IMG/VR virus record: IMGVR_UViG_3300010362_000037
Coordinates: 1 to 43,766 of that record
DNA from: a virus
Lineage: Duplodnaviria > Caudoviricetes
Reading direction: 5' to 3' (one strand)
DNA length: 43,766 bases
The notes beneath the pieces are model-generated. The model ran no database searches. It was not told the origin of the DNA and worked only from the letters and a program-made list of their open reading frames with translations. Position 1 is the stretch's first letter, and every line of letters begins with the position of its first letter. The translations under genes and the position numbers were made by a program. Of this stretch, positions 1,082 through 13,306 are shown in pieces.

Positions 1082-1731
1082 GACCGACTCGTCGAAGACG
1101 AGTCGGGTTGGCCTCGAACTTGAGGCGAGTACCTTGAAAACTCAATCTCGGAACCGGCCGGAGACGGAGACGCCTCCGGTCGGCATTTAGTCCGAGTCCG
1201 GCCTCTCAAGTAGGCGAAGCTAGATCGGCCAAAAGAGAGGGTCAAGCGCGCGGCGGGGAGACTACGACCTCCGCCCGACGGCCGGATACGGACGAGCGAG
1301 ACTCGAAAGAATAATGGGTAGGGCGGCTACTTGCCAACCCGAGGGACGGCGGCTTTTGGGCGATCCCTTGGTAGTAGGGGTAGAACCGATATGGAAAAGA
1401 GGCCCGGATGGTATCGAGACCCTCGCTCGTCGCGTCCGACCGGAGCCGACCGGCGTTAGCCCATCTAGTAGGGCGCGACCGGCGACGCGGGGAAACGGTA
1501 GGACGAGCTTACGAGCGAGTAATGAGACCGAGGTTGCGATCTTTGAAAACTCTATAATGGTACCCCCTCCTTACGGCGGGGCGTCGGGCGTCCGAAGGAC
1601 GGACGCCCGGCGTTCCATCAAGGAGAGGCGCGCTCCGAGTGGATGGTTCCCGTCCGTTCTCATCCGCTCGGCAAGACGCGACTCTCCTTGATGGAGCGCG
1701 GCGCAAAACGCCCGCCCGCAAATAAGGAGGG
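1082..1731 (+). ncRNA. Long structured leader / candidate ncRNA with two boxA-like motifs
   Basis: No credible ORF; many inverted repeats; CAATCTCGG 1143-1151 pairs with CCGAGGTTG 1528-1536; CCCTCCTTA 1565-1573 pairs with the SD TAAGGAGGG 1723-1731; TTGAAAACTC at 1134 and 1543. Confidence 0.6.
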
Positions 1732-1737
1732 AATGGA

Positions 1738-2103
1738 ATGGATAAGAAGACGCAAGAAGCGCGCGCAAGAAATAAGGCGATGTACCGCGCTCGCTTGACG
1801 AACCTATCTGGCTTGCCCGACTATGATGCGCGCGGCCTCGGTCGCAAGGGGAAGCCAAGCGAGACGTTCGCAACTCGTCAATGTAACTACGTCGTTGGCG
1901 GGAAAGAGAAGTTGATTCGCCGCAACCGGAAAACAAGAAAGATCGGCCAAAGCGACTACTACTTCATCCCGCTCATTCTCGGCGGGAAGCGTTGTACGAA
2001 GTCTGAGATGAGCAAGGGAAGATGCCTTGAACATCTCGGGGCGACGTATGAGAAGGTAAGCAAGAAACCGAGCGATGAGCTGAAAGACCTCGGAATCAAG
2101 TAG
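1738..2103 (+). CDS. Hypothetical basic early protein
   Basis: SD TAAGGAGG; stop codon coincides with the first intergenic RNA element. Confidence 0.8.
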   Translation: MDKKTQEARARNKAMYRARLTNLSGLPDYDARGLGRKGKPSETFATRQCNYVVGGKEKLIRRNRKTRKIGQSDYYFIPLILGGKRCTKSEMSKGRCLEHLGATYEKVSKKPSDELKDLGIK

Positions 2104-2200
2104 GAGGTCGGGCCAAATCGAAAAATGGCCCGGTCTCGTATTTGCCCCGAGGGCAAGTGCGAACCAACCGTAATGAGGGTACCTAACATAAGGAGAAGAT

Positions 2201-2461
2201 ATGTCGATCTACATCGAAACCGATGTGAGGCTCGATTCGCTTGACTTGGCGAATCTCGAGATGCTTGTAATGGACAGGATGAAGGAACTCCGCGAGTTCC
2301 GCAAGTCCAACGAGTCAAGCTTCTCGACGGCCATCGCCGATGAGCAGCTCGCCAACTACCGGGGCACGTTGAAGCGCATTCGGGCGGGGCGCGAGCAGGT
2401 CAAGATCATCTCGGACGGAATGCGCCGGCAAAACCGCCGCAATGCGGTGAAGCGGTCATGA
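2201..2461 (+). CDS. Hypothetical protein
   Basis: SD AAGGAG; overlaps next ATG (ATGA). Confidence 0.8.
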   Translation: MSIYIETDVRLDSLDLANLEMLVMDRMKELREFRKSNESSFSTAIADEQLANYRGTLKRIRAGREQVKIISDGMRRQNRRNAVKRS

Positions 2462-2628
2462 AGAACCTCGACGTCATCCTCGCGCGGCTTGAAGCGATCC
2501 GCGATGACCGCTTCGCAGAAATGTGCAAGTGCAAAGAGGTCGGCGATGAGGTGAAGGAGGCGACGTTGAACGGTGAAGTTCGCGGAATGATTACCGCGAT
2601 CAACGTCATCAAGAACGCGACAAGGTGA
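2458..2628 (+). CDS. Hypothetical 56-aa protein (MKNLDVILARLEAIRDD...)
   Basis: ATGA coupling; TGA is the start of the repeat element at 2626. Confidence 0.75.
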   Translation: MKNLDVILARLEAIRDDRFAEMCKCKEVGDEVKEATLNGEVRGMITAINVIKNATR

Positions 2629-2699
2629 GTAGGAAGTCATCCGGGTTGAAAGCCGGATGGCCTCGTACTCATACGAGTACGGATCAAAGGAGGGTACCG

Positions 2700-2801
2700 A
2701 TGAAAAGCCAAAATGCGATCAAGGATGCAATCCAGCATCCGAAGCAGGTCAATCTCGGCTCCTTCGGCGTTGCATTGATGGCGGCGGCGAAGAAGAGTTG
2801 A
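2700..2801 (+). CDS. Hypothetical 33-aa peptide (MKSQNAIKDAIQHPKQVNLGSFGVALMAAAKKS)
   Basis: Follows GGAGGGTACC; its TGA starts the next repeat element. Confidence 0.7.
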   Translation: MKSQNAIKDAIQHPKQVNLGSFGVALMAAAKKS

Positions 2802-2912
2802 GTAGGAAGCTCCATCTAGCGGGCATGCAATGCATGCGACGGGATGGAGCCTCGTGCTCAAAGCTGAGTACGGCAACAAACAAACCGTAATGAGGGTACC
2901 GAAGGAGATGAG

Positions 2913-3392
2913 ATGGCAACCAAGAAAGAAGCAAAAGTCAACTCCTTACCTGAGAAGGTGAAGGAATGGGCGAAGGACAACTACCTCGGCAACGAAGTCG
3001 GATCCGATGAGTACCGCGAAGTTCAACCTGTAGGTGGGTTGAACGCGGCGCTCGCGTACTTTATGAACACCAACGTGAATATGACGGCTGGCTTGCAGCC
3101 TCATCACGTTGAGATGCTCAAGGAGCTGCGCGATTGGATCTCGGCGATCATCATCGATGTCGAGGCCGAAGGCGATGGCTACCTGGAGCGGACAAAGAAA
3201 ACCGGCTATGCCCTCGCGTCGAATATGTACCCCGGCAACGATAAGGCCGAGCCTGTGTTGGCCCGGGCGTTCGATGCGAACTGGGATGTCGGCGTTCATC
3301 CGTACGGCTTTACGGCCGCGCAAGTGATGGAAGACTACAACTTCCATCTCGAGATCGACAAGATGGCGGAGGAGCGCGACAAGAAGAAGTGA
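2913..3392 (+). CDS. Hypothetical protein
   Basis: SD AAGGAG; bounded by repeat elements. Confidence 0.8.
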   Translation: MATKKEAKVNSLPEKVKEWAKDNYLGNEVGSDEYREVQPVGGLNAALAYFMNTNVNMTAGLQPHHVEMLKELRDWISAIIIDVEAEGDGYLERTKKTGYALASNMYPGNDKAEPVLARAFDANWDVGVHPYGFTAAQVMEDYNFHLEIDKMAEERDKKK

Positions 3393-3459
3393 GTAGGAAG
3401 TCATCCTTGGGGGAGGATGGCCTCGTACTCATGATGAGTGCGAGAAGGAGGGTACCAAA

Positions 3460-3903
3460 ATGTCCGAGTTCGAATGGACTGACCCGGATGACGGGAAGGT
3501 CTATGAGATGCGTTACATCGTAACGCAACATGAGAGCGAAGGCCCGGAATATGTCGAGTGGCGTGAGAAGCCGATGGCTGAGCGTGACTTGACGATGTGG
3601 CATAAGCTCCCGCCGTTCGCCATGCCACCCCAAGAAGCTATGGAGCACTGGCATGGCCCCGTGATCCGGTGGTGGGATGAAGTCCAACAGGGCGTCATCC
3701 TCGCCATCAAGGATGACGGACGCGAGGAGTACAACGCTCTCTGCGTCAACGAAAAATGCGAGTTGTTCTGGGCCGATCTGACGGTCTTCGAGAACATCTC
3801 CGACCCCGATGGCGATCAGGTCTCGCCTGGCATGGTAATCAAGACGAATCATGCCTTGGAAGTGAAAGGCCCGGACTTGCTCCGGGAATGGTACGCGAGA
3901 TGA
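3460..3903 (+). CDS. Hypothetical acidic protein
   Basis: Follows GGAGGGTACC. Confidence 0.8.
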   Translation: MSEFEWTDPDDGKVYEMRYIVTQHESEGPEYVEWREKPMAERDLTMWHKLPPFAMPPQEAMEHWHGPVIRWWDEVQQGVILAIKDDGREEYNALCVNEKCELFWADLTVFENISDPDGDQVSPGMVIKTNHALEVKGPDLLREWYAR

Positions 3904-4322
3904 ACGCGCCATTGTACGGACGCGAGTTGACGTATGCGGACGAGACGGACGTGTTTGCCTTGGTCGAAGAGTTCTATTGCATTGCCAAGGAAGCATTGCC
4001 GATCCCGTCAAGCGACGATGGACTCGGGTTCCGCGATCTCTGGATGTCCGGCCCCAATCCGGACGGAGAAGGCATCTGGTACAACGATACGACGGCGGTT
4101 GAGCCGCTTGTTCTGCAAGCGATCTGCGCCGAGATGCTCTCTCGTGGGATTGATCCCGGCTACGGCGACTATGCCGACGATGATTCGAGCGTCGGGATGG
4201 TGATGGCGTTCGTCAAAACCGGCAAGAAGTATGACGTCGAGTTCGTCGGAATCACGAGAATCGAGTCAATCGGCTTCAACGCGGCCCGACGTGTCGGGAT
4301 GGCGTTGTCGCTGCTGAGCTGA
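3900..4322 (+). CDS. Hypothetical acidic protein
   Basis: ATGA overlap at 3900 (start trimmed from track ORF 3756). Confidence 0.75.
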   Translation: MNAPLYGRELTYADETDVFALVEEFYCIAKEALPIPSSDDGLGFRDLWMSGPNPDGEGIWYNDTTAVEPLVLQAICAEMLSRGIDPGYGDYADDDSSVGMVMAFVKTGKKYDVEFVGITRIESIGFNAARRVGMALSLLS

Positions 4323-4410
4323 TAGAAGCTGTTATGCTGAGAAGCGTAATGCTGCGAGGCATAACGGCTTGTGTCAACCTGGCACAGAAAGGCCAACAAG
4401 GAGGGTACCG

Positions 4411-4671
4411 ATGAAGAAGAAGGATGTGCGGATTGGCGCATACTACGCCATCAAGCACACGTCATCTCCGTATGGGAAGCTCAGCGTCATTCGCATTGAC
4501 GGTGAGTCGCAGTACGGAGGCTACAACGCCACCAACCTCAAGACGAAGCGACCGATCCGCATCAAGGCGGCAACGAAGCTCCGCTATGAGGTCAAGCTCA
4601 ACCCCGACTTTGTCGAGGCCGAGCCTGAGCTGATGCTGAAGAACGGCATCAAGAAATGGCAGGTGGCGTAA
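4411..4671 (+). CDS. Hypothetical basic protein (MKKKDVRIGAYY...)
   Basis: ATG directly after GGAGGGTACC. Confidence 0.8.
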   Translation: MKKKDVRIGAYYAIKHTSSPYGKLSVIRIDGESQYGGYNATNLKTKRPIRIKAATKLRYEVKLNPDFVEAEPELMLKNGIKKWQVA

Positions 4672-5036
4672 TGCCTGACTACGAATCAGAAGCATGGCAG
4701 GCATACCTGCACGTTCGGCAGGAAGTCGAGCATGACGTCGAGCGCGGTATGATGCGCATCGGCAAGGACAATGTCATGCGGAAGATGGACTACTTCGATG
4801 AGATCGAGCGGCGGTTGAACAATCTGATCGCGAACTACAACCGCTACCGGCTCAAGGATGAGAAGAACATCGCGAAGTACAAGGACGATCCGCAGTACAA
4901 GGAGATCATCCCGCAATGGGAGACGGATCGCGCCTGGGCTTCGGAGATGGTCTGGATGATCCGCAACTATCGCGATCAGGAGCGGTTCCGCAAGGACTTC
5001 GGACTCGCTGTTGTCTTGGTGAAGAGCAATGCCTAA
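4671..5036 (+). CDS. Hypothetical protein
   Basis: TAATG coupling. Confidence 0.75.
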   Translation: MPDYESEAWQAYLHVRQEVEHDVERGMMRIGKDNVMRKMDYFDEIERRLNNLIANYNRYRLKDEKNIAKYKDDPQYKEIIPQWETDRAWASEMVWMIRNYRDQERFRKDFGLAVVLVKSNA

Positions 5037-5253
5037 GTACAAGATACATGGCTTCCTCTATGAGCCGAGCGCGGAAGGCGTGGACAGAAATGGCTACCTG
5101 CACTTCTGGGATGTTGTCGAAGCGCCGACCGTGAAAGAAGCCTACGAAATGACGTGGGAAGACTACGGCGAGTACAATACGCTCGAATGTGCTGGCGAGG
5201 TCAAAAGCAAGCACGATGAGCAACTCTGGCTGAAGCTAAACGCAACAGGCTGA
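5029..5253 (+). CDS. Hypothetical protein
   Basis: Overlaps previous stop; ends at a repeat element. Confidence 0.75.
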   Translation: MPKYKIHGFLYEPSAEGVDRNGYLHFWDVVEAPTVKEAYEMTWEDYGEYNTLECAGEVKSKHDEQLWLKLNATG

Positions 5254-5327
5254 GCAGAAAGTCCCATCCGTAAAAAGATGGGGCCTTGTGTTCGGGCTGT
5301 ACCGAACCAACCGAAGGAGGGTACCAA

Positions 5328-5726
5328 TTGACTGGATGGAATATGCCTCCAGGTGTCAATGTCAACGACATCCCCGGGAATCGTCCCGAGGATGAGATGG
5401 AGGAAGCGTTCTGGGCCGAGCTTGAGAAGAAGCTGACTCTGATCAAAGTCGCTCAGGACAACGAGTCTGTGATCCCGGTCATCGAGGCTATCGGCGATAA
5501 CTGGGATGAGGATTGGTTCGTCCAGGCGATCTCCAAAGCTCGAGACATGGGCTTCGACGCGGGCTACAACCAGGGCGTCGCCGACGAAGCTATGCAGATC
5601 GGCGGCTATGAGTCGGAAGTCTGGGAACGTGCGCAAACATGGCTGGAAGACAACAAGACGGCCAGCGCGCGAGCCTACATCTCGCAGCTCGCGAAGATCA
5701 GAGCTGAGATGAACGCCGATGATTGA
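5328..5726 (+). CDS. Hypothetical protein (GWNMPPGV..DIPGN N-terminus)
   Basis: TTG start after GGAGGGTACC. Confidence 0.75.
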   Translation: MTGWNMPPGVNVNDIPGNRPEDEMEEAFWAELEKKLTLIKVAQDNESVIPVIEAIGDNWDEDWFVQAISKARDMGFDAGYNQGVADEAMQIGGYESEVWERAQTWLEDNKTASARAYISQLAKIRAEMNADD

Positions 5727-5904
5727 CGCGAACGGCAAGGACATCGAGTACGGCGACAAAGTCAGGCAGCATCCCGACGGCGAGATCGTCGCGCAGGTCT
5801 ACTACATGGACTATCTGAAGATGATAGTTCACGTAATGGTGATCGACGAGATCGACAAAGGTACGCTCGTCAAGCTGCGGCCAGACGAGATCGAAGTCAT
5901 CTGA
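5719..5904 (+). CDS. Small hypothetical protein, possibly SH3/KOW-like
   Basis: DANGKDIEYGDKV motif; ends at a repeat element. Confidence 0.7.
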   Translation: MIDANGKDIEYGDKVRQHPDGEIVAQVYYMDYLKMIVHVMVIDEIDKGTLVKLRPDEIEVI

Positions 5905-5977
5905 GTAGGAAGTCGCCCATGTGCGATGGGCGGCCTCGTATTCAGATGGTCTGAATACGTACATAAGGAGGGTACCT

Positions 5978-6289
5978 ATGCCAATGTTTGATGATGCGAG
6001 TACCTACTCGCCATACAAACCGGCGTTCGGCCCGGAGAAAGACATCATCATGATGGCGACTCCGGGTGACTGGCCCTGTTGGCCCAGGCTGCCGCTGAAG
6101 CGGCGGAACCTGAGCACTGGGATGATGGAGACCGGCTACCTGCTGGAGCTGAACAACTTCATGCACGTCGTCTTCATCGGCACCATCTACGACGTTCTGC
6201 CTGACAGCGTCGATAAGCTCGGCGAGGTCAAGCAGATCAAGTACAACTCGTTCCAAGCGATCCAAGCCGACGGCTGGATCGTAGACTGA
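5978..6289 (+). CDS. Hypothetical phage protein (WPCWPRLPLKR...GWIVD)
   Basis: ATG after GGAGGGTACC. Confidence 0.75.
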   Translation: MPMFDDASTYSPYKPAFGPEKDIIMMATPGDWPCWPRLPLKRRNLSTGMMETGYLLELNNFMHVVFIGTIYDVLPDSVDKLGEVKQIKYNSFQAIQADGWIVD

Positions 6290-6516
6290 TGGAGCGGCCG
6301 GTCTCGTATGAGAGAATCCCATTCCGGTTTCTCTCTTGCCCGGATTGCCGGCATCAGCTCTGCTGGATCAATCCGAGGCTGCCCAACTACTGCCCCGAAT
6401 GCGGCAATCGCGTCGAATGGAAGGAGCGCGTCATGATGGCTGATGACGAAGCGATCCTGATGACGCATAATGTCTCACTCGCGGGCGGCGAGTACGTGGA
6501 TGGCTTCGATGGCTAG
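6289..6516 (+). CDS. Zinc-ribbon protein
   Basis: CPDC...CPECG. Confidence 0.7.
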   Translation: MERPVSYERIPFRFLSCPDCRHQLCWINPRLPNYCPECGNRVEWKERVMMADDEAILMTHNVSLAGGEYVDGFDG

Positions 6517-6703
6517 AGATATTGACGACCCGGATCCGAAGACCTGGGATGACGATGTTCTCGAAGCCTTTGTCGCCGGCATGATGCTCGACTACGGCGC
6601 GATGGTCATGGAAGTCGAAGAGTTGAAAGTTCGGCGGCTCACGATCATGCTGGAGTTCGAGCGTCGTTTCAAGATCGGAGTTGGGTTTCAAGGCCCATCG
6701 TGA
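6509..6703 (+). CDS. Hypothetical protein
   Basis: Overlaps previous stop; ends at the repeat element at 6701. Confidence 0.65.
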   Translation: MARDIDDPDPKTWDDDVLEAFVAGMMLDYGAMVMEVEELKVRRLTIMLEFERRFKIGVGFQGPS

Positions 6704-6782
6704 AGCGTAGCTCGCCCGTGTGCGACGGGCGGGCTAGACTTCATAATGGAATGAAGTCTACTTGCCCAAGGAGGGTGCCAAA

Positions 6783-7439
6783 ATGCATGCGAAGATGAGA
6801 CCGGGCGCGAATCTCAGCGCTCACGGAACAGTCATCGCCTGTCGCGTCTTCGACAAGACAGAAGAGGAAGACGTCAATCACGGCACGCAGATCACATACC
6901 GTTCAATCGTGTTCTGCGTCCGCGAAGTCTACACTCCAACCTACGTCACGGATCCGTATGTGACGTGGGAGCGGTGGACATCTGTCCTGAAGTCCGATCC
7001 GACCGTCATTATCGCCGACTCGTTCAGCTGGGGCCACTATCACCTCAGCCTGGATATGGCCGTCGCTGATTACGATCATCGGGTCGAAGACAAGACGCAC
7101 GAGAAAGCAGACATAGATGCGATCTCGGCGCGTGGCGTCAACGACGGAAGGGCAGCGGCTACCTGGCTAATCGACGGCAACACCGATGCTCCGCTCGCAG
7201 TTCTCGAAGGTCTGCTGCGTGGCATCGATGAGGGCGATCCTGAGGTGCTCGACTCTCTGCCAATGCCTCATCTCGGTGGCGAATGGTCGGACAATCCGAC
7301 CTGGGAAGACATCTGCAAGGAAGAACTCGACCGCTATGAAGACGGCGAGGATGACTTGCTCAATGTCTACCATCACTCGTTCCACGAGGGCGTCGAGCAG
7401 CAGATCCGCGAGATGCACCGAGATCTGATGGCCGTCTGA
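6783..7439 (+). CDS. Hypothetical acidic protein
   Basis: ATG after GGAGGGTGCC. Confidence 0.8.
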   Translation: MHAKMRPGANLSAHGTVIACRVFDKTEEEDVNHGTQITYRSIVFCVREVYTPTYVTDPYVTWERWTSVLKSDPTVIIADSFSWGHYHLSLDMAVADYDHRVEDKTHEKADIDAISARGVNDGRAAATWLIDGNTDAPLAVLEGLLRGIDEGDPEVLDSLPMPHLGGEWSDNPTWEDICKEELDRYEDGEDDLLNVYHHSFHEGVEQQIREMHRDLMAV

Positions 7440-7512
7440 GTAGGAAGTCCGGTTGGAAGCAACCGGGCCTCGTGTTCAGATGAGCTGAACACTATCCGAA
7501 GGAGGGTACCGA

Positions 7513-7755
7513 ATGATGAACCCGTCACCGGGCGAAATCAACGATCCGCTGGAACCGGGCAACATCCAGCTGAGCTACCGCATCAAGGTGTACTTTGCGC
7601 CGGGAATGGATACGGTGCTGTATGCTCAAGGCGCGGAAGTCTTCATGGATGAGCACCATATCCAGTGGATCAAGTTCTTCGCCACGAACGGCCCCGATGC
7701 GGGTAAGGAACATATCGTCCGCACCGAGGAAGTGGTCATCGTCAGGGACAACTGA
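7513..7755 (+). CDS. Hypothetical protein
   Basis: ATG after GGAGGGTACC. Confidence 0.75.
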   Translation: MMNPSPGEINDPLEPGNIQLSYRIKVYFAPGMDTVLYAQGAEVFMDEHHIQWIKFFATNGPDAGKEHIVRTEEVVIVRDN

Positions 7756-8015
7756 TGTGGACAAAACGGTGGCAAAATAAGCGACCGGGTTGGACACGTC
7801 GGATTACCTGGTACCCCGTTCCTCATACCGACGGCGAACGTATCCATCTCAGGTTTGACGAGAGGATGGCGAACAACGAAGGTCGGGAGCGGTGGGACAT
7901 CATCGTCTCAAAAGCTCGAGCTGAAGAACTAGCAGCCGAGTATGAGAGTGACGAGTACCGCGAAGCCAAGGACATCTTCATCGATGTTATGGCAGAACAG
8001 GAGCAAGATGAGTGA
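7755..8015 (+). CDS. Hypothetical protein
   Basis: TGATG coupling. Confidence 0.7.
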   Translation: MWTKRWQNKRPGWTRRITWYPVPHTDGERIHLRFDERMANNEGRERWDIIVSKARAEELAAEYESDEYREAKDIFIDVMAEQEQDE

Positions 8016-8283
8016 AGGTGGGTTCATAATCGACTCGCCCAAGGGCATCAAGGCATTCGGTCTACTTCAGATCTACTACAAGCTGAAGCTGGAGATCGAG
8101 CGTCCCAACGGCCCGCGTTGGCGGCAGTCGCCATCTATTCAAGCGGTTCACGTAATGCGCCAAGCAGGCGTCAATCTCGACGATCTCGCGAAGCAGCCGC
8201 GCAAAGCCAAGGTGTTCGCCAGGTATCGCCAATACTTGCTGGACACCGGTGTCCTGAAGGAGAACGATGGCGACAGTCAATAG
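8008..8283 (+). CDS. Hypothetical protein
   Basis: AGGAG before ATG 8008. Confidence 0.7.
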   Translation: MSEGGFIIDSPKGIKAFGLLQIYYKLKLEIERPNGPRWRQSPSIQAVHVMRQAGVNLDDLAKQPRKAKVFARYRQYLLDTGVLKENDGDSQ

Positions 8284-8494
8284 TCGAGAGATCGTACAAG
8301 CGATCATCGACGGCGACGGTTGGTATCCTGGCGATAAGGAAGATGGCGTCCCTCAGGTCGTCAAGATCGTCCAGTATAACAACCAGTTCAATGGCGGGAT
8401 CGCGTACGGCCTGATCTACCGGGGCGAAGACCGGATGCGGTATCATACCGCTCCGGCCGTTCATAACCCCCAGACGATCTGGGAACGGAACTGA
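8267..8494 (+). CDS. Hypothetical protein
   Basis: SD AAGGAG; ends at a repeat element. Confidence 0.75.
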   Translation: MATVNSREIVQAIIDGDGWYPGDKEDGVPQVVKIVQYNNQFNGGIAYGLIYRGEDRMRYHTAPAVHNPQTIWERN

Positions 8495-8572
8495 GTAGAA
8501 AGTCACCCGCGTGCGACGGGTGGCCTTGTACTCAGAGTGGTTCTGAGTACATTACCCCGTAGGAGGGTACCA

Positions 8573-9532
8573 ATGAACGCTAACCAAAAGGATGACCTGC
8601 TGCGGAAGATTGCGGGTCTGCTGGCCAAGGCAGAGTCCACAGAGTTCGAAGGCGAGCGCGATGTGTTTCTCGCAAAAGCCGACGAGCTGATGATGAAGTA
8701 CAGCATCGAACTCTGGGAACTCGAACAGGCCAACCAGGGCCGCATCGATCAGAGGCAGCCGGTCATTCGTGACTTCGACTACAACTGGGCGTTCGAGTCT
8801 GGGCCGTTCCCGGAGATCGCAGATGCGCTCTGGACGCTGTTCAACTCGGTCGCTCGGCATGCGAACTGCGTCATCGTCTTTCACAAGCAGCACTACTCGC
8901 ACGAGAAGGGCGGCTACGCATCGGGCATGGTGCCGGTGATCGGTACGGAAAGCGATCTCGGCTACATGACGCTGCTGTTCAGCTCTCTGATGACTCAGCT
9001 CGTCGCCGCTGTTCATCCGAAGGTGGATACGAACAAGGGCTACGAGGAGAACCTGAGGACATTCCGTGAAGCTGGCTGGGGCTGGCTCGAGGTTGCGAAG
9101 GTGATGCAGGAGGCCGGTTACGACCTCGGCATGACGGTGAGCGATGCTCGGCATAAGGAAGCCCACGCCTACCGGCGTTGGTGCAAGCGCATGGGCATCG
9201 ACCAGAACTACGCTCACTTCAAGACCTACCGCCGGAACTTCGGCTATGGGTTTGTGAGTGCTCTGGATACTCGCTTCCGCGAGATGCGCAGCGAACAGGC
9301 TCAGAAGCTCGGAACGGGAATGGAACTCGCTCTCCGCGATCAGCGCGAGATCAACCGCGAGTTCATGTTCGCTCAGTTCCCAGACATGGGCGGTCGGCGC
9401 GGGGCGGTGGTGAAGGACAACCGCAAGTTCGACTCGGCTGCGTACAGCGGCGGGTCGGCGGCCGGGAAGTCCGCCAACATCAGCGTCCATCCGGCGAAGG
9501 GCGTCAAGGGACGCAAGTCGCTCGGAAAATGA
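8573..9532 (+). CDS. DUF2786 domain protein
   Basis: N-terminal KIAGLLAKAESTEFEGERDVFLAKADELMMKY is the DUF2786 signature. Confidence 0.85.
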   Translation: MNANQKDDLLRKIAGLLAKAESTEFEGERDVFLAKADELMMKYSIELWELEQANQGRIDQRQPVIRDFDYNWAFESGPFPEIADALWTLFNSVARHANCVIVFHKQHYSHEKGGYASGMVPVIGTESDLGYMTLLFSSLMTQLVAAVHPKVDTNKGYEENLRTFREAGWGWLEVAKVMQEAGYDLGMTVSDARHKEAHAYRRWCKRMGIDQNYAHFKTYRRNFGYGFVSALDTRFREMRSEQAQKLGTGMELALRDQREINREFMFAQFPDMGGRRGAVVKDNRKFDSAAYSGGSAAGKSANISVHPAKGVKGRKSLGK

Positions 9533-9603
9533 GCAGGAAGTCACCCGTGGGGGCGGGTGGCCTCGTGTTCATCCGAGCACGGAACCGAGAGGAGGGTACC
9601 GCT

Positions 9604-9792
9604 TTGGACAAGGAGTTCAAGGTCACGTTCACGATCACGATCAACGGTGTCACCGAGGTCGAGGCCGAAGACGAAGACGACGCCATGGACATTGTCGATG
9701 GCTGGGATCTGAGCGACTTCGGAGACTTCACCATCGGCGACAGCGAGGTCGATGTGACCGTCGAGGTCGAAGAAGTCAAGAAGGAGAAATGA
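9604..9792 (+). CDS. Small, very acidic protein (VEAEDEDDA motif)
   Basis: TTG start after GGAGGGTACC. Confidence 0.7.
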   Translation: MDKEFKVTFTITINGVTEVEAEDEDDAMDIVDGWDLSDFGDFTIGDSEVDVTVEVEEVKKEK

Positions 9793-10115
9793 CCGATCTG
9801 CCGTTCGAAGACGACATTCGCAACCCGTTCATGCCGGGTGACGATCTACCAAAGCCGAAGATAGGCGACGTGCTTGTTCTTCGCGATATGGAGATCAACG
9901 AGACCTACCCTCGACAGATGAGGGTTGTCGATACTCACGACAATCTTGGCGAGAGCTGGGATCCCGTCGGTGAGGAAGCCTGGATGCAACATGACATGAA
10001 CGACATCGCCGGATTCAAAGGTCACTGGTACGCGATCTGCGAACAAGTCGAGCAACTTGAAGTTTCCGATTCGTATGTCGTTGCCTCATACGAGGTCGCG
10101 ACCATCGAGAGGTAG
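9789..10115 (+). CDS. Hypothetical acidic protein
   Basis: SD AAGGAG; ATGA overlap. Confidence 0.75.
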   Translation: MTDLPFEDDIRNPFMPGDDLPKPKIGDVLVLRDMEINETYPRQMRVVDTHDNLGESWDPVGEEAWMQHDMNDIAGFKGHWYAICEQVEQLEVSDSYVVASYEVATIER

Positions 10116-10180
10116 TTGCGGTTCGCCCGAGTGCGACGGGCGTTCCGGAGCATACCGCTCCAGAAAGAGAGGGTACCAAA

Positions 10181-10762
10181 ATGGTCAAAAGGACAGAGGT
10201 TCCGGATCAGTTCCGGAGCACTGGCCCGACCGCGACCGAACCACAGCTTGGTTGGGCACGTAGGTTGCGGGACGGCAAAGATCTGAGCAGCTTGTCCGAG
10301 GAGCAACAGGATTGGCTAGCCACCGCTGACTTCGACACCTATCCTTCGGAGCTACCGAAGAGCAGGTTGAGTACAGTCATCGAGAAGCTAGTCAGCTTGC
10401 CTTGGGAGAAGCGCAAGGCGGTCGATTCCGGTCTGGACGACGGGCGCTATGGAGTTGAGAACGTACCTGGTCACAAGAACAAGGTCTCGTTCTTCCAACT
10501 CCGTACGCCCAAGGAAGGCGACTGGAAAGGCTACCAGTTCACCGATCAGATCGTGGGTCATGGGAAGCGGTATGGCGTCGTTGACGTCAAGACCCGTATG
10601 AAGATCCACTCTCTGATCAAGGAACAAGGGGCCAACGAGTGCCTCATGCGGTTCGGCGTCGAGTTCAAGCACTGCGGCCGCTGCGGTCGCGAGTTGACCG
10701 ATGACACCAGCCGCGCCTGGGGCATCGGCCCTGACTGCAGAAAGATCCTGGGGCTGTCATGA
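10181..10762 (+). CDS. DUF6011-like zinc-finger protein
   Basis: C-terminal CGRCGRELTDDTSRAWGIGPDC. Confidence 0.8.
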   Translation: MVKRTEVPDQFRSTGPTATEPQLGWARRLRDGKDLSSLSEEQQDWLATADFDTYPSELPKSRLSTVIEKLVSLPWEKRKAVDSGLDDGRYGVENVPGHKNKVSFFQLRTPKEGDWKGYQFTDQIVGHGKRYGVVDVKTRMKIHSLIKEQGANECLMRFGVEFKHCGRCGRELTDDTSRAWGIGPDCRKILGLS

Positions 10763-10941
10763 ACTTCCGCGACTACCTCGGAATGCTCATGAATCTCGAG
10801 ATTGAAGCTGAGGACTCGGGCATTGATCTGAATAAGATTCAGATTGCTGCCTACCTCCTCGAAGACGGGATCATAATGCAGCCCGAGAAACCGTACATCG
10901 ACGGCTTCCATCTCTGCCTCGACTACAAGAGAGGTGAATGA
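10759..10941 (+). CDS. Hypothetical protein
   Basis: ATGA overlaps at both ends. Confidence 0.65.
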   Translation: MNFRDYLGMLMNLEIEAEDSGIDLNKIQIAAYLLEDGIIMQPEKPYIDGFHLCLDYKRGE

Positions 10942-11234
10942 TGCCTCTAGACGAAACCTGGGAGCCCATCGACACCCACGTCCTCATCACCGAGGCGGGG
11001 CCGATCCCGCTGAACATCCGTCGAGTCCAGTCGAGCAATATCAGCTGGGTTGGATGGCCTCAGGCGGCGGAAGCTGCGCCAATGATGGTCGTCCAGTTCG
11101 TTGACGGCAGCCGCTACATCTACTTCGGAGTCAGCCGGCAGCGTGCGAATGCTGTGGCTCGGGCGAAGAGCAGCGGCGAGTACCTCAATCGTAAGATCAA
11201 GAACCAGGGATACCGGGTTCTCAAGGTGCGGTGA
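10938..11234 (+). CDS. KTSC domain protein
   Basis: VQSSNISWVGW...VQFVDGSRYIYFGV...AKSSGEYLNRKIK. Confidence 0.85.
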   Translation: MMPLDETWEPIDTHVLITEAGPIPLNIRRVQSSNISWVGWPQAAEAAPMMVVQFVDGSRYIYFGVSRQRANAVARAKSSGEYLNRKIKNQGYRVLKVR

Positions 11235-11302
11235 CCCGCCGTTCCCACCTACTGGGTGGGGGCGGGAGGTCACACTCCACGTTTCTCCTGGAAAACCAGG
11301 GG

Positions 11303-11350
11303 TAGACGGGTACCATCCCGTACGCTATACTCGGCGTATTGGGTACCATC
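11303..11350 (+). promoter_or_regulatory. Sigma70-type promoter TAGACG-17-TATACT with two GGGTACCATC sites
   Basis: -35 at 11303-11308, -10 at 11326-11331; GGGTACCATC at 11308-11317 and 11341-11350. Confidence 0.75.
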
Positions 11351-11371
11351 AACCGTAGGAGGGAGCATAGA

Positions 11372-11950
11372 ATGCCCCGTAGTCGCAAGACGACGACGGC
11401 TGCATCCACGTCCAGTGGTCGCGGTCGTCCGACAGAGAACAACGTGCCGACGAGCGACATCGTCAAGGCGATCAAGCGCGGCACCACGAGCCACAGTGCT
11501 GTGGCGAACGAGTTGGGCGTGCCGGTTGGCGCCTTCTCGTCCATGCAATTCAGCAGGGCACTGGTCGAGGCCGGTGAAGAGGAAGTCATCCCGGAGCGGC
11601 AGCGCACGGAGAACACCGTGCTCAGGCTCTACGAGGATGAAGGCTACCGCTGGGAGCTGATCGCGGCCAAGTTCGAGACCTCCGTTGCGGACGTCAAGGA
11701 GCTGGTCGGCGGCGTGGACGTTGCCGCAGGTCTGACTCGCGGCAAGAAGGAGAACGGGAACGGCAACGGCAGTTCCTCTCGTTCCTCCAAGAAGCAGACG
11801 ACGGCGCAGAGCGGAAGCAAGACTCGCTCCGTGAAGCGCACGTCGGCCCGCAGCAGCAAGAAGGCGTCGGCGGCATCGTCGGCGGCTGCCCCCACCCGGT
11901 CTCGCACGCGCAAGCAGCGGCAGGCCCGGGCAGGCGGCAACCCTTCCTAG
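11372..11950 (+). CDS. Putative DNA-binding protein: tandem HTH-like core with basic Ser/Arg/Lys-rich tails
   Basis: SHSAVANELGVPVG and YRWELIAAKFETSVADVKEL helices; histone-like C-tail; SD AGGAGGG. Confidence 0.65.
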   Translation: MPRSRKTTTAASTSSGRGRPTENNVPTSDIVKAIKRGTTSHSAVANELGVPVGAFSSMQFSRALVEAGEEEVIPERQRTENTVLRLYEDEGYRWELIAAKFETSVADVKELVGGVDVAAGLTRGKKENGNGNGSSSRSSKKQTTAQSGSKTRSVKRTSARSSKKASAASSAAAPTRSRTRKQRQARAGGNPS

Positions 11951-12000
11951 CGGCGGTCATCGTTGCCCAGAAGAGCGGCGATTGGGATGAGCTTGAGCAG

Positions 12001-12240
12001 TTGCTCTATCCCGGTCGCCGCGTCTGGGTAGTCAGCAAGGTGGATTCAGTCCCGTTCATAGCGGGGCCGTACACCATGGTGAAGTTCAAGCAGTTCTTGC
12101 CGCGAGGAGCCTATGAGCGGTTTGGCGAACTCGCAGAACGCAAGAAATCACTCATCCAGATTTACACCGATCCTGGAGGTCTTCGGACAGTGGCCGCCGC
12201 TGAGATAAGGCTGCAAGATCCAGGTAGGACTGGACGATGA
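12001..12240 (+). CDS. Hypothetical protein; start uncertain, possibly a frameshift extension of 11372-11950
   Basis: Weak SD, TTG start; frame reads as plausible protein back to 11941; stop coincides with the variant element at 12237. Confidence 0.55.
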   Translation: MLYPGRRVWVVSKVDSVPFIAGPYTMVKFKQFLPRGAYERFGELAERKKSLIQIYTDPGGLRTVAAAEIRLQDPGRTGR

Positions 12241-12300
12241 GCTGCGGTTGGCCCGTCGGGGGCGGGCCTTCCGAAGTTCATATCCAAAAGGAGGGTGCCA

Positions 12301-13217: not shown

Positions 13218-13306
13218 GGGGAACCGGGGTAGAATGGTACCCTCCCCCGGTTCCCCAAATCTCTTGAGCGTGATGGTCGCACCTGGGTTCGACTCCCAGG
13301 ACGCTA
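13218..13306 (+). ncRNA. Intergenic hairpin followed by a tRNA-like acceptor/T-arm mini-structure
   Basis: 12-bp perfect IR 13218-13229/13245-13256; AGCGT...CCTGGG-TTCGACT-CCCAGG-ACGCT at 13267-13305. Confidence 0.5.

Follow-up and report, generated by a model that had tools for sequence, protein, structure and literature searches.

Background

In bacteria, the rrn leader and the 16S-23S spacer carry boxB, boxA and boxC together with a leader-trailer helix, and are served by a complex of NusA, NusB, NusE, NusG, SuhB and S4. The put and EAR RNAs, with about 70-125 nt, are smaller and need no boxA. The rrn boxes of Actinobacteria presumably carry a GAGAA variant. A report on the ternary crystal structure places the NusB contacts at boxA G2, C5 and position 6 (PMC3177189), and the B. 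subtilis rrn boxA, AUGAUCUUUGAAA, is described in PMC13753749 as lying downstream of a 5' hairpin and binding NusB by NMR. In E. coli, according to two reports, one of which also names the EAR RNA (PMC8632103), the complex loops the rRNA from boxA and so promotes its maturation (PMC4807359; PMC8632103). GOLLD and ROOL are phage RNAs of unknown function, some of whose kissing loops are intermolecular (PMC12286853), and the word boxA is absent from the main text of that paper. In the open literature we find no boxA-flanked phage ncRNA, while supplementary viral-RNA catalogues may hold pieces of the RNA described here.

Here we analyse a window of 43,766 nucleotides, which is the entire record of a myovirus (43.8 kb, completeness 72%). 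A preliminary description had pointed to a closed RNA domain of about 390 nt lying between two rrn-like boxA sequences near the start of the window. The early region consists of small genes on the plus strand from 1738, the contractile-tail genes are encoded on the minus strand, and the replication genes include an SNF2 helicase, a primase-MCM, DnaE and ThyX. The best cultured matches are actinobacteriophages (DnaE 42%, sheath 32%). No integrase is present among the 48 window proteins scanned, and ARAGORN finds no tRNA (0) in the window. No cultured-phage DNA matches the region by blastn against 50,697 phage records, and no prophage or host genome carrying a homologous locus is found in the pattern searches.

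Comparison with known systems

The locus resembles an rrn operon in its order of 5' hairpin, boxA, large RNA closed by a helix that starts behind boxA, and second boxA, as well as in the sequence of the boxes, which match those of B. subtilis and Priestia. Unlike in rrn, the cargo is not rRNA, the closing helix of 8-11 bp excludes the box, no terminator follows, no boxC is identified and the unit runs on into protein genes. A long RNase III-type leader-trailer helix enclosing an rRNA is missing here, RF00177 gives no match, and comparison with three rrn loci shows no similarity apart from the boxes. With lambda pL-nutL-N it has in common that the first early leader contains a boxA and that the gene behind it encodes a small basic protein whose N-terminal helix is Arg-rich. 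The differences from lambda are that no conserved boxB lies 3' of boxA, that the first protein contains a zinc domain and has no significant N homology, that a conserved RNA of 390 nt separates the two boxes, and that the host is probably of Gram-positive type. Where nut would have a boxB hairpin a few bases 3' of boxA, long-range closing strands are found instead. Like GOLLD and ROOL (PMC12286853), the RNA is a large ornate phage RNA with a kissing loop; unlike them, it has 394 nt, no match to their Rfam models, no tRNAs nearby and a boxA on each side. Finally, as in HK022 put and B. subtilis EAR, a structured RNA heads an operon that may need read-through.

Homologous loci

A search with the pattern of box 2 yields one true relative among nine loci, with 69% identity and both boxes present; the other eight are chance matches and were set aside. 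A DNA search of 50 records, namely 49 of the 58 sheath relatives and one chance locus, gives six matches, five of them real. With the element at 1558-1576 as search anchor, true relatives make up 9 of 10 viral and 29 of 34 metagenome loci, some of them redundant; the locus L098 is the window itself. Chance pattern matches were discarded (L069, L083, L091, L100, L110 and L122), as was L177 from the genome contigs, which sits among ORFs. In a later pattern search 51 of 54 matches are due to chance and the remaining three are already-known loci. On the whole, the full RNA between the boxes, which we call type A, is present in 18 loci including the window, with a mean pairwise identity of 56%, and L116 carries a partial, more distant homologue (nhmmer E 3e-6).

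A strict box pattern matches 8 of 24 records, with the leader only in five close near-complete relatives and three isolated sites elsewhere. Three loci (L097, L099 and L114) form a box-less lineage, which keeps the anchor and a distant gene 1 behind unrelated upstream sequence, and in more distant relatives gene 1 is found in 0 of 25 records and 0 of 4 near-complete ones. The box-less lineage and the distant relatives without gene 1 together show that the system is dispensable at the family level.

To the left of the locus, a divergent small gene lies on the minus strand at 1-318 (75% DNA identity in L006), for which no family is found. The stretch 430-1040 is non-coding and A/C-rich, has seven ACTCAACTCAACACA-type repeat copies at 540-833, looks similar in relatives, and is a candidate origin, genome end or leftward control region.

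Promoter and boxA motifs

A predicted primary-sigma promoter lies on the plus strand at 1051-1080, with the -35 hexamer TAGCGG (1051-1056), a spacer of 18 nt and the -10 hexamer TAGACT (1075-1080), from which transcription is predicted to start near 1084-1087. Against the consensus TAGACG-17-TAGACT, the best upstream site scores at least 10/12 in 12 of 25 loci and 6-9 in another 12, with none in one truncated locus; a stock sigma-70 scan of the window does not output the 1051-1080 promoter. Behind it the plus-strand sequence forms two 5' hairpins (1084-1106 and 1111-1126; z -4.5), which occupy the position of boxB, or of the 5' hairpin, in rrn leaders, and relatives have hairpins of differing sequence in their place.

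All strings quoted in the preliminary description are found where it put them, and the boxA strings are right; the functional 12-mers of the two boxes, however, begin further 5', at 1128-1139 and 1537-1548. BoxA 1, AGUACCUUGAAA ACU, lies on the plus strand at 1128-1142, keeps G2 and C5, and matches the B. subtilis consensus at 8 of 13 positions, while most boxA 1 copies of the relatives match at 9-11 of 13. BoxA 2, CGAUCUUUGAAA ACU, lies on the same strand at 1537-1551 and matches at 11 of 13, and the box of L118 reaches 13 of 13. The boxes were compared with those of Bacillota and E. coli. Both Priestia rrn boxes, GAACTTTGAAAACT before 16S and GTTCTTTGAAAACT before 23S, recur as exact 14-mers in phage boxes.

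The two boxes are the only strong motifs of their kind in the window. A plain string count by itself is at chance level: CTTGAAAACTCWAT with up to three mismatches has three matches in the whole window (0, 1 and 3 mismatches), with 2.7 expected. Searching YTGAHAA within 680 nt of the anchor in 28 non-redundant loci gives 57 matches, four of which were excluded from the count. Two of these lie 5' of the promoter, one is within the RNA and one is cut by a contig end, and none of the three readable ones has G2. The 53 boxes kept come from 27 of the 28 loci, at two per locus as in rrn. Although G2 and C5 lie outside the search pattern, G2 is present in 53 of 53 boxes and C5 in 45, with Y6 in 51, the boxes coming from related loci and hence not being independent; background heptamers have G2 in 6 of 15, C5 in 6 of 15 and both in 2 of 15. 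A profile of the 53 boxes gives 24.6 bits at 1537 and 19.9 at 1128 against 12.8 at the next site of the window, whose own two boxes are in the training set. The boxes show the rrn-type 12-nt consensus (G2, C5, Y6, U7, U8) and also the rrn-type placement: they lie close to the promoter, behind a 5' hairpin and ahead of a large untranslated RNA, and recur in front of the next unit. By sequence, conserved NusB-contact positions and the match to the Priestia leader and spacer boxes, the two motifs are indeed boxA-like.

The type-A RNA

Between the boxes, the preliminary description had seen a closed domain, and the homologous loci bear this out: the plus strand at 1143-1536 encodes a closed, conserved RNA of 394 nt with covarying helices and no Rfam match. 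The stretch 1070-1620 has a better folding energy than shuffled sequences (z -3.7, with -3.9 for the minus strand), and the domain alone has a z of -2.5. In a plain MAFFT alignment of 17 type-A sequences (L107, 98% identical to L090, was left out), the 69 named pairs have 72.9% paired cells against 62.6% when shuffled (0/500) and 37-50% in slid registers, and 49 of the 69 show two-sided change against 33 when shuffled (0/500), values whose significance these shuffling and sliding controls overstate, since the structure was drawn from the same sequences. As MAFFT misaligns the closing helix (44% paired) and the kissing loop (52% paired), these were tested without column alignment, by comparing the pairing of each strand with its own partner and with the partners of other loci in 20000 permutations that ignore relatedness.

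The closing helix (1143-1151/1528-1536, plus strand) has 9 bp with one G-U in the window and 8-11 bp across type-A loci. Over 17 type-A domains, the cognate pairing has -13.2 kcal/mol against -7.3 when permuted (0/20000), so that the pairing proposed at first is kept by compensatory change. Inside it, a long irregular helix spans 1282-1439 on the plus strand (1282-1287/1434-1439, 1291-1300/1422-1431, 1303-1306/1414-1417 and 1316-1318/1403-1405) and caps in a multi-branch subdomain with a conserved loop at 1347-1362; 81-90% of its cells are paired, with two-sided changes, in the alignment that was not fitted to the structure. Permutation supports 1291-1300/1422-1431 (-14.3 against -9.1 kcal/mol; 0/20000) and 1277-1287/1434-1444 (-12.5 against -8.1 kcal/mol; 0/20000). 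Two partners had been offered for 1422-1430: the copy at 1292-1300 is conserved, while that at 1511-1519 is null (-6.1 against -6.2 kcal/mol; 11217/20000) and belongs to a small UACG hairpin of its own (1507-1516, plus strand).

A further conserved element is a kissing loop on the plus strand between GCUAGAU (1219-1225), in the loop of hairpin 1202-1240, and AUCUAGU (1463-1469), in the loop of hairpin 1450-1482. The two loops, 240 nt apart, can pair over 4-9 bp in each of the 17 sequences, at -7.1 against -4.8 kcal/mol when permuted (0/20000). The partners are swapped in L085, L118, L109/L115 and L113, wholesale in the first three of these, and the swaps are distinct sequence pairs even though the permutation ignores relatedness. 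Three control pairings are null in the same test, and L116 has no evident kissing loop. For the invariant core UCCG (1197-1200), covariation does not discriminate between three possible partners; the 1347-1362 loop shows no covarying pairing with 1190-1195 or with the kissing loops, and the helix 1181-1195/1495-1505 is plausible in each sequence, with a score not above permutation (6447/20000).

The domain is non-coding, with only 38 of 195 indels being multiples of 3 and no ORF common to the loci; an ORF at 1314-1691, taken as a coding candidate, was rejected as not conserved among relatives. As had been suggested for checking, Rfam 15 was searched and has no family for the domain: the window has 0 matches at gathering score, with only hairpin matches of E 0.4-1.7 in 300-2300, and 15 homologous loci have two chance matches only. 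Among the covariance models without a match are those of GOLLD, ROOL, OLE, raiA, RNase P, tmRNA, T-box, riboswitches, ribozymes, group I and II introns and EAR. Resemblances to hammerhead, T-box, RNase P and group I/II RNAs were rejected by motif order and Rfam, and a by-eye likeness to stretches of 23S and 16S rRNA is unsupported by comparison with the three rrn loci. With extensive covarying structure, a kissing loop and no coding content, the domain has the character of the large ornate phage ncRNAs. No terminator is found 3' of it.

Modules behind the boxes

Type A is one of several RNAs in this position. In each case where a module follows a box, the 5' strand of its closing helix starts within a few bases of the box, and in 20 modules not of type A the box-adjacent bases pair with the far end of the module at -12.4 against -8.1 (0/20000), two single modules (L079 m1 and L115 m2) closing no better than background. 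Seven loci (L079, L086, L084/L088, L112, L121, L094 and L102) have two modules, B1 and B2, which measure 249-295 and 184-215 nt. Both are preceded by a box of their own, and they occupy the stretch that begins about 510 nt and ends 5 nt upstream of the anchor. Neither has nhmmer similarity to type A, and they are two further uncatalogued RNA families. Four type-A loci have an extra module of 87-140 nt behind box 2. In L085, L087 and L118, a small extra closed module with shared motifs is seen behind box 2, 120-140 nt upstream of the anchor.

Two loci have a type C, with the motif order of type A and a CUAG loop pair, at no significant score, which is probably a diverged type A; this weakens the argument for exchange. 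In the gene-1 tree, a single type-A clade is rejected (AU p 0.013), as type C groups with L080/L085; since type C resembles a diverged type A, the tree does not show exchange. A single type-B clade is not rejected (p 0.48). Box 2 is retained even in loci without a large module behind it, and its distance to the anchor varies from 12 to 215 nt depending on locus.

Leader and gene 1

Behind box 2 lies a near-invariant anti-Shine-Dalgarno element (1558-1576, plus strand), complementary to the phage's own ribosome-binding site (RBS) motif AAGGAGGGUACC; it served as the search anchor, so that its invariance is partly due to selection. It is the reverse complement of AAGGAGGGTACC plus two extra C, and AAGGAGGGTACC has 13 copies on the plus strand at 2175-12291; four relatives have 12-14 RBS motifs per 19 kb. 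The leader that follows (1577-1737, plus strand) is predicted to form a four-way junction closed by pairing of the anti-Shine-Dalgarno element with the gene-1 RBS (1723-1731). The stretch 1557-1740 has a folding z of -8.2, and the same layout is predicted in relatives. This pairing is predicted in 29 of 30 loci, including those where the RBS differs. Because this conservation extends to loci with a different gene-1 RBS, the element may have a role in trans or as a site for a protein. For seven motif-bearing early RBSs it is predicted to bind at -19 to -21 kcal/mol against -13 to -17 for the 16S tail, and more strongly than the tail in 11 of 17 early starts. A second inverted motif, GGAGGGTACC, is seen on the minus strand at 13236-13244, at the end of the early region, and G003 has an RBS-oriented copy of the motif after its helicase gene.

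An intergenic element of the form TGAGTAGGAAGTC, hairpin, GGCCTCGTACTCA, second hairpin, AAGGAGGGTACC and start codon is repeated at 2626, 2799, 3390, 5251, 5902, 7437, 8492 and 9530, with variants near 2100 and 6695; the relatives G003, G011, G018 and G026 have it as well. Either a single long irregular stem or a pair of hairpins can form from it, and it lacks a U tract. It is a candidate for an RNase III site protected by a 5' hairpin, or for a U-less terminator.

Gene 1 (1738-2103, plus strand) encodes a basic protein of 121 aa with an N-terminal Arg-rich helix and a predicted zinc site (C49/C86/C96/H99), and is the first gene behind the anchor in 28 of the 30 loci examined. Its family is small (58 representatives; structure model pLDDT 75), and a scan of viral contigs with its peptide gives 13 candidates, none confirmed. 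It has no Pfam, PHROG or PDB match, and the fold searches give nothing at E 0.001 or with Z above 2.6, the Atlas matches being below 0.9. The zinc site weakly recalls A20 zinc fingers and the GcrA sigma-interacting domain (Z 2.2-2.4), and 4 of 29 members weakly match DUF5763; a sigma- or RNAP-binding role is a lead only. The Arg-rich helix aligns in register with the first 12 residues of lambda N. In a profile comparison (hhalign) the probability is 0.9% with E 0.059 over 12 residues, and the start of N ranks 1 of 1438 at 5.8 bits (family 31-39) against a background that is not matched for basic helices. By sequence, the N-terminus only resembles that of lambda N, and the likeness is not significant.

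Interpretation of the locus

With marginally better than even confidence, we read the locus as a mini rRNA-type operon, in which Nus factors chaperone a cargo RNA and carry the polymerase into hairpin-rich early genes. The first early transcript of the phage would then consist of promoter-proximal hairpins, boxA, the 394-nt RNA, boxA and the gene-1 leader. Host NusB-S10 likely binds each boxA and would assemble an rrn-type elongation complex. This complex would keep the strand that directly follows boxA tethered to the polymerase until the pairing strand, 390 nt further on, has been made; in this way the RNA is proposed to reach a compact fold locked by the kissing loop. At the second boxA the complex would be loaded anew, either for another module or for the 11 kb of early genes with tandem hairpins in front of each, and the leader 3' of box 2 is predicted to hide the gene-1 RBS. 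Most likely the RNA is exchangeable cargo acting in trans in the first minutes of infection, where it may be a protein-binding decoy or a scaffold for host takeover or counter-defence. We infer transcription, NusB binding, chaperoning and read-through, and more weakly the release of the RNA and its role.

That each box stands directly before a closed module speaks for RNA chaperoning no less than for antitermination, and a tight coupling of box and closing helix is expected under the chaperone model of the rrn complex (PMC4807359; PMC8632103; PMC7819879). The retention of box 2 without a large module suggests that the complex is also wanted downstream. These two features place chaperoned cargo with read-through first and a cis antiterminator second. 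Against the favoured reading counts that mutating boxA in E. coli reduces subunit activity by no more than 2- to 3-fold (PMC10250234). The box of Priestia rrn lies within a leader-trailer helix of about 35 bp, whereas the closing helix here measures 8-11 bp and no trailer complements the box, so that an rRNA-like release by RNase III is unlikely; as no terminator follows either, the RNA may remain in the mRNA leader. The leader and the early region are G-rich (C/G 0.81 and 0.84) and poor Rho substrates, and therefore a need for Rho protection is not obvious.

The strongest rival, which we hold to be a good deal less probable, is a cis antiterminator like lambda N/nut or put/EAR, where the folded leader, boxA and gene-1 protein would jointly modify the polymerase so that it reads through the tandem hairpins ahead of each early gene, and the RNA is no separate product. 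It accounts well for the order of promoter, boxA, hairpins and small basic gene, which is that of lambda pL-nutL-N, for the Arg-rich helix in register with N, whose start tops all 1437 background N-termini, for the eight tandem-hairpin elements before early genes (2626-9530), for box 2 being kept without a large module, and for the lack of a terminator 3' of the RNA. However, the match of gene 1 to N is only 0.9% with E 0.059, and N lacks the folded zinc domain; the intergenic hairpins have no U tracts and may be processing or stability elements; the boxes are confined to the leader; and unrelated RNAs in one slot suit cargo better than a single RNAP-binding fold.

Somewhat more doubtful is an RNA-cassette operon as the first act of infection, where the host's rRNA machinery, loaded at each boxA, would mass-produce exchangeable folded RNAs, possibly oligomerising through the CUAG kissing loop, as RNA-only counter-defence or takeover factors, while an N-like zinc-finger protein and the anti-Shine-Dalgarno element would time the shut-off of early translation.

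It is improbable that the boxes are processing marks, that is, single-stranded AU-rich cut sites beside a helix that release the modules without involvement of NusB, their boxA likeness being inherited from rrn leader-trailer sequences. Every box does lie at a module boundary, and the Bacillota rrn box is part of a processing helix, but the NusB-read G2 (53/53) and C5 (45/53) are kept while positions 3 and 4 vary, and the minus-strand match expected of a complementary trailer is absent from the window. Slightly more improbable still is that the 650-nt leader is a 5' UTR that senses a ligand or protein and frees or hides the gene-1 RBS. The pairing of anti-Shine-Dalgarno element and RBS predicted in 29 of 30 loci would suit it, and so would the four-way core with a kissing loop, which resembles riboswitch architecture; against it, the type-A domain is self-closed and replaceable, box 2 lies between the domain and the anti-Shine-Dalgarno element, and Rfam gives no riboswitch family match. 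A DNA-level element (origin, packaging end or repressor sites) or fortuitous pairing within a GC-rich intergenic stretch is very improbable, for although the repeat-rich 430-1040 lies just upstream and both strands fold equally by z-score, the two-sided covariation, G-U pairs, kissing loop and strand-specific boxA placement speak for RNA.

Significance

On the favoured reading of a boxA-chaperoned cargo RNA, the parts work like known ones, while the RNA families and this use of boxA are not found in Rfam 15 or the open literature. The type-A RNA adds an uncatalogued, covariation-supported large kissing-loop RNA to the short list of ornate phage RNAs, and the same slot yields at least two more unrelated module families. 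The locus also offers a small, non-essential system for testing whether, outside Proteobacteria, boxA-Nus serves in antitermination, in RNA chaperoning, or in both. Should the RNAs indeed work in trans as infection begins, they would represent a new route of phage host takeover.
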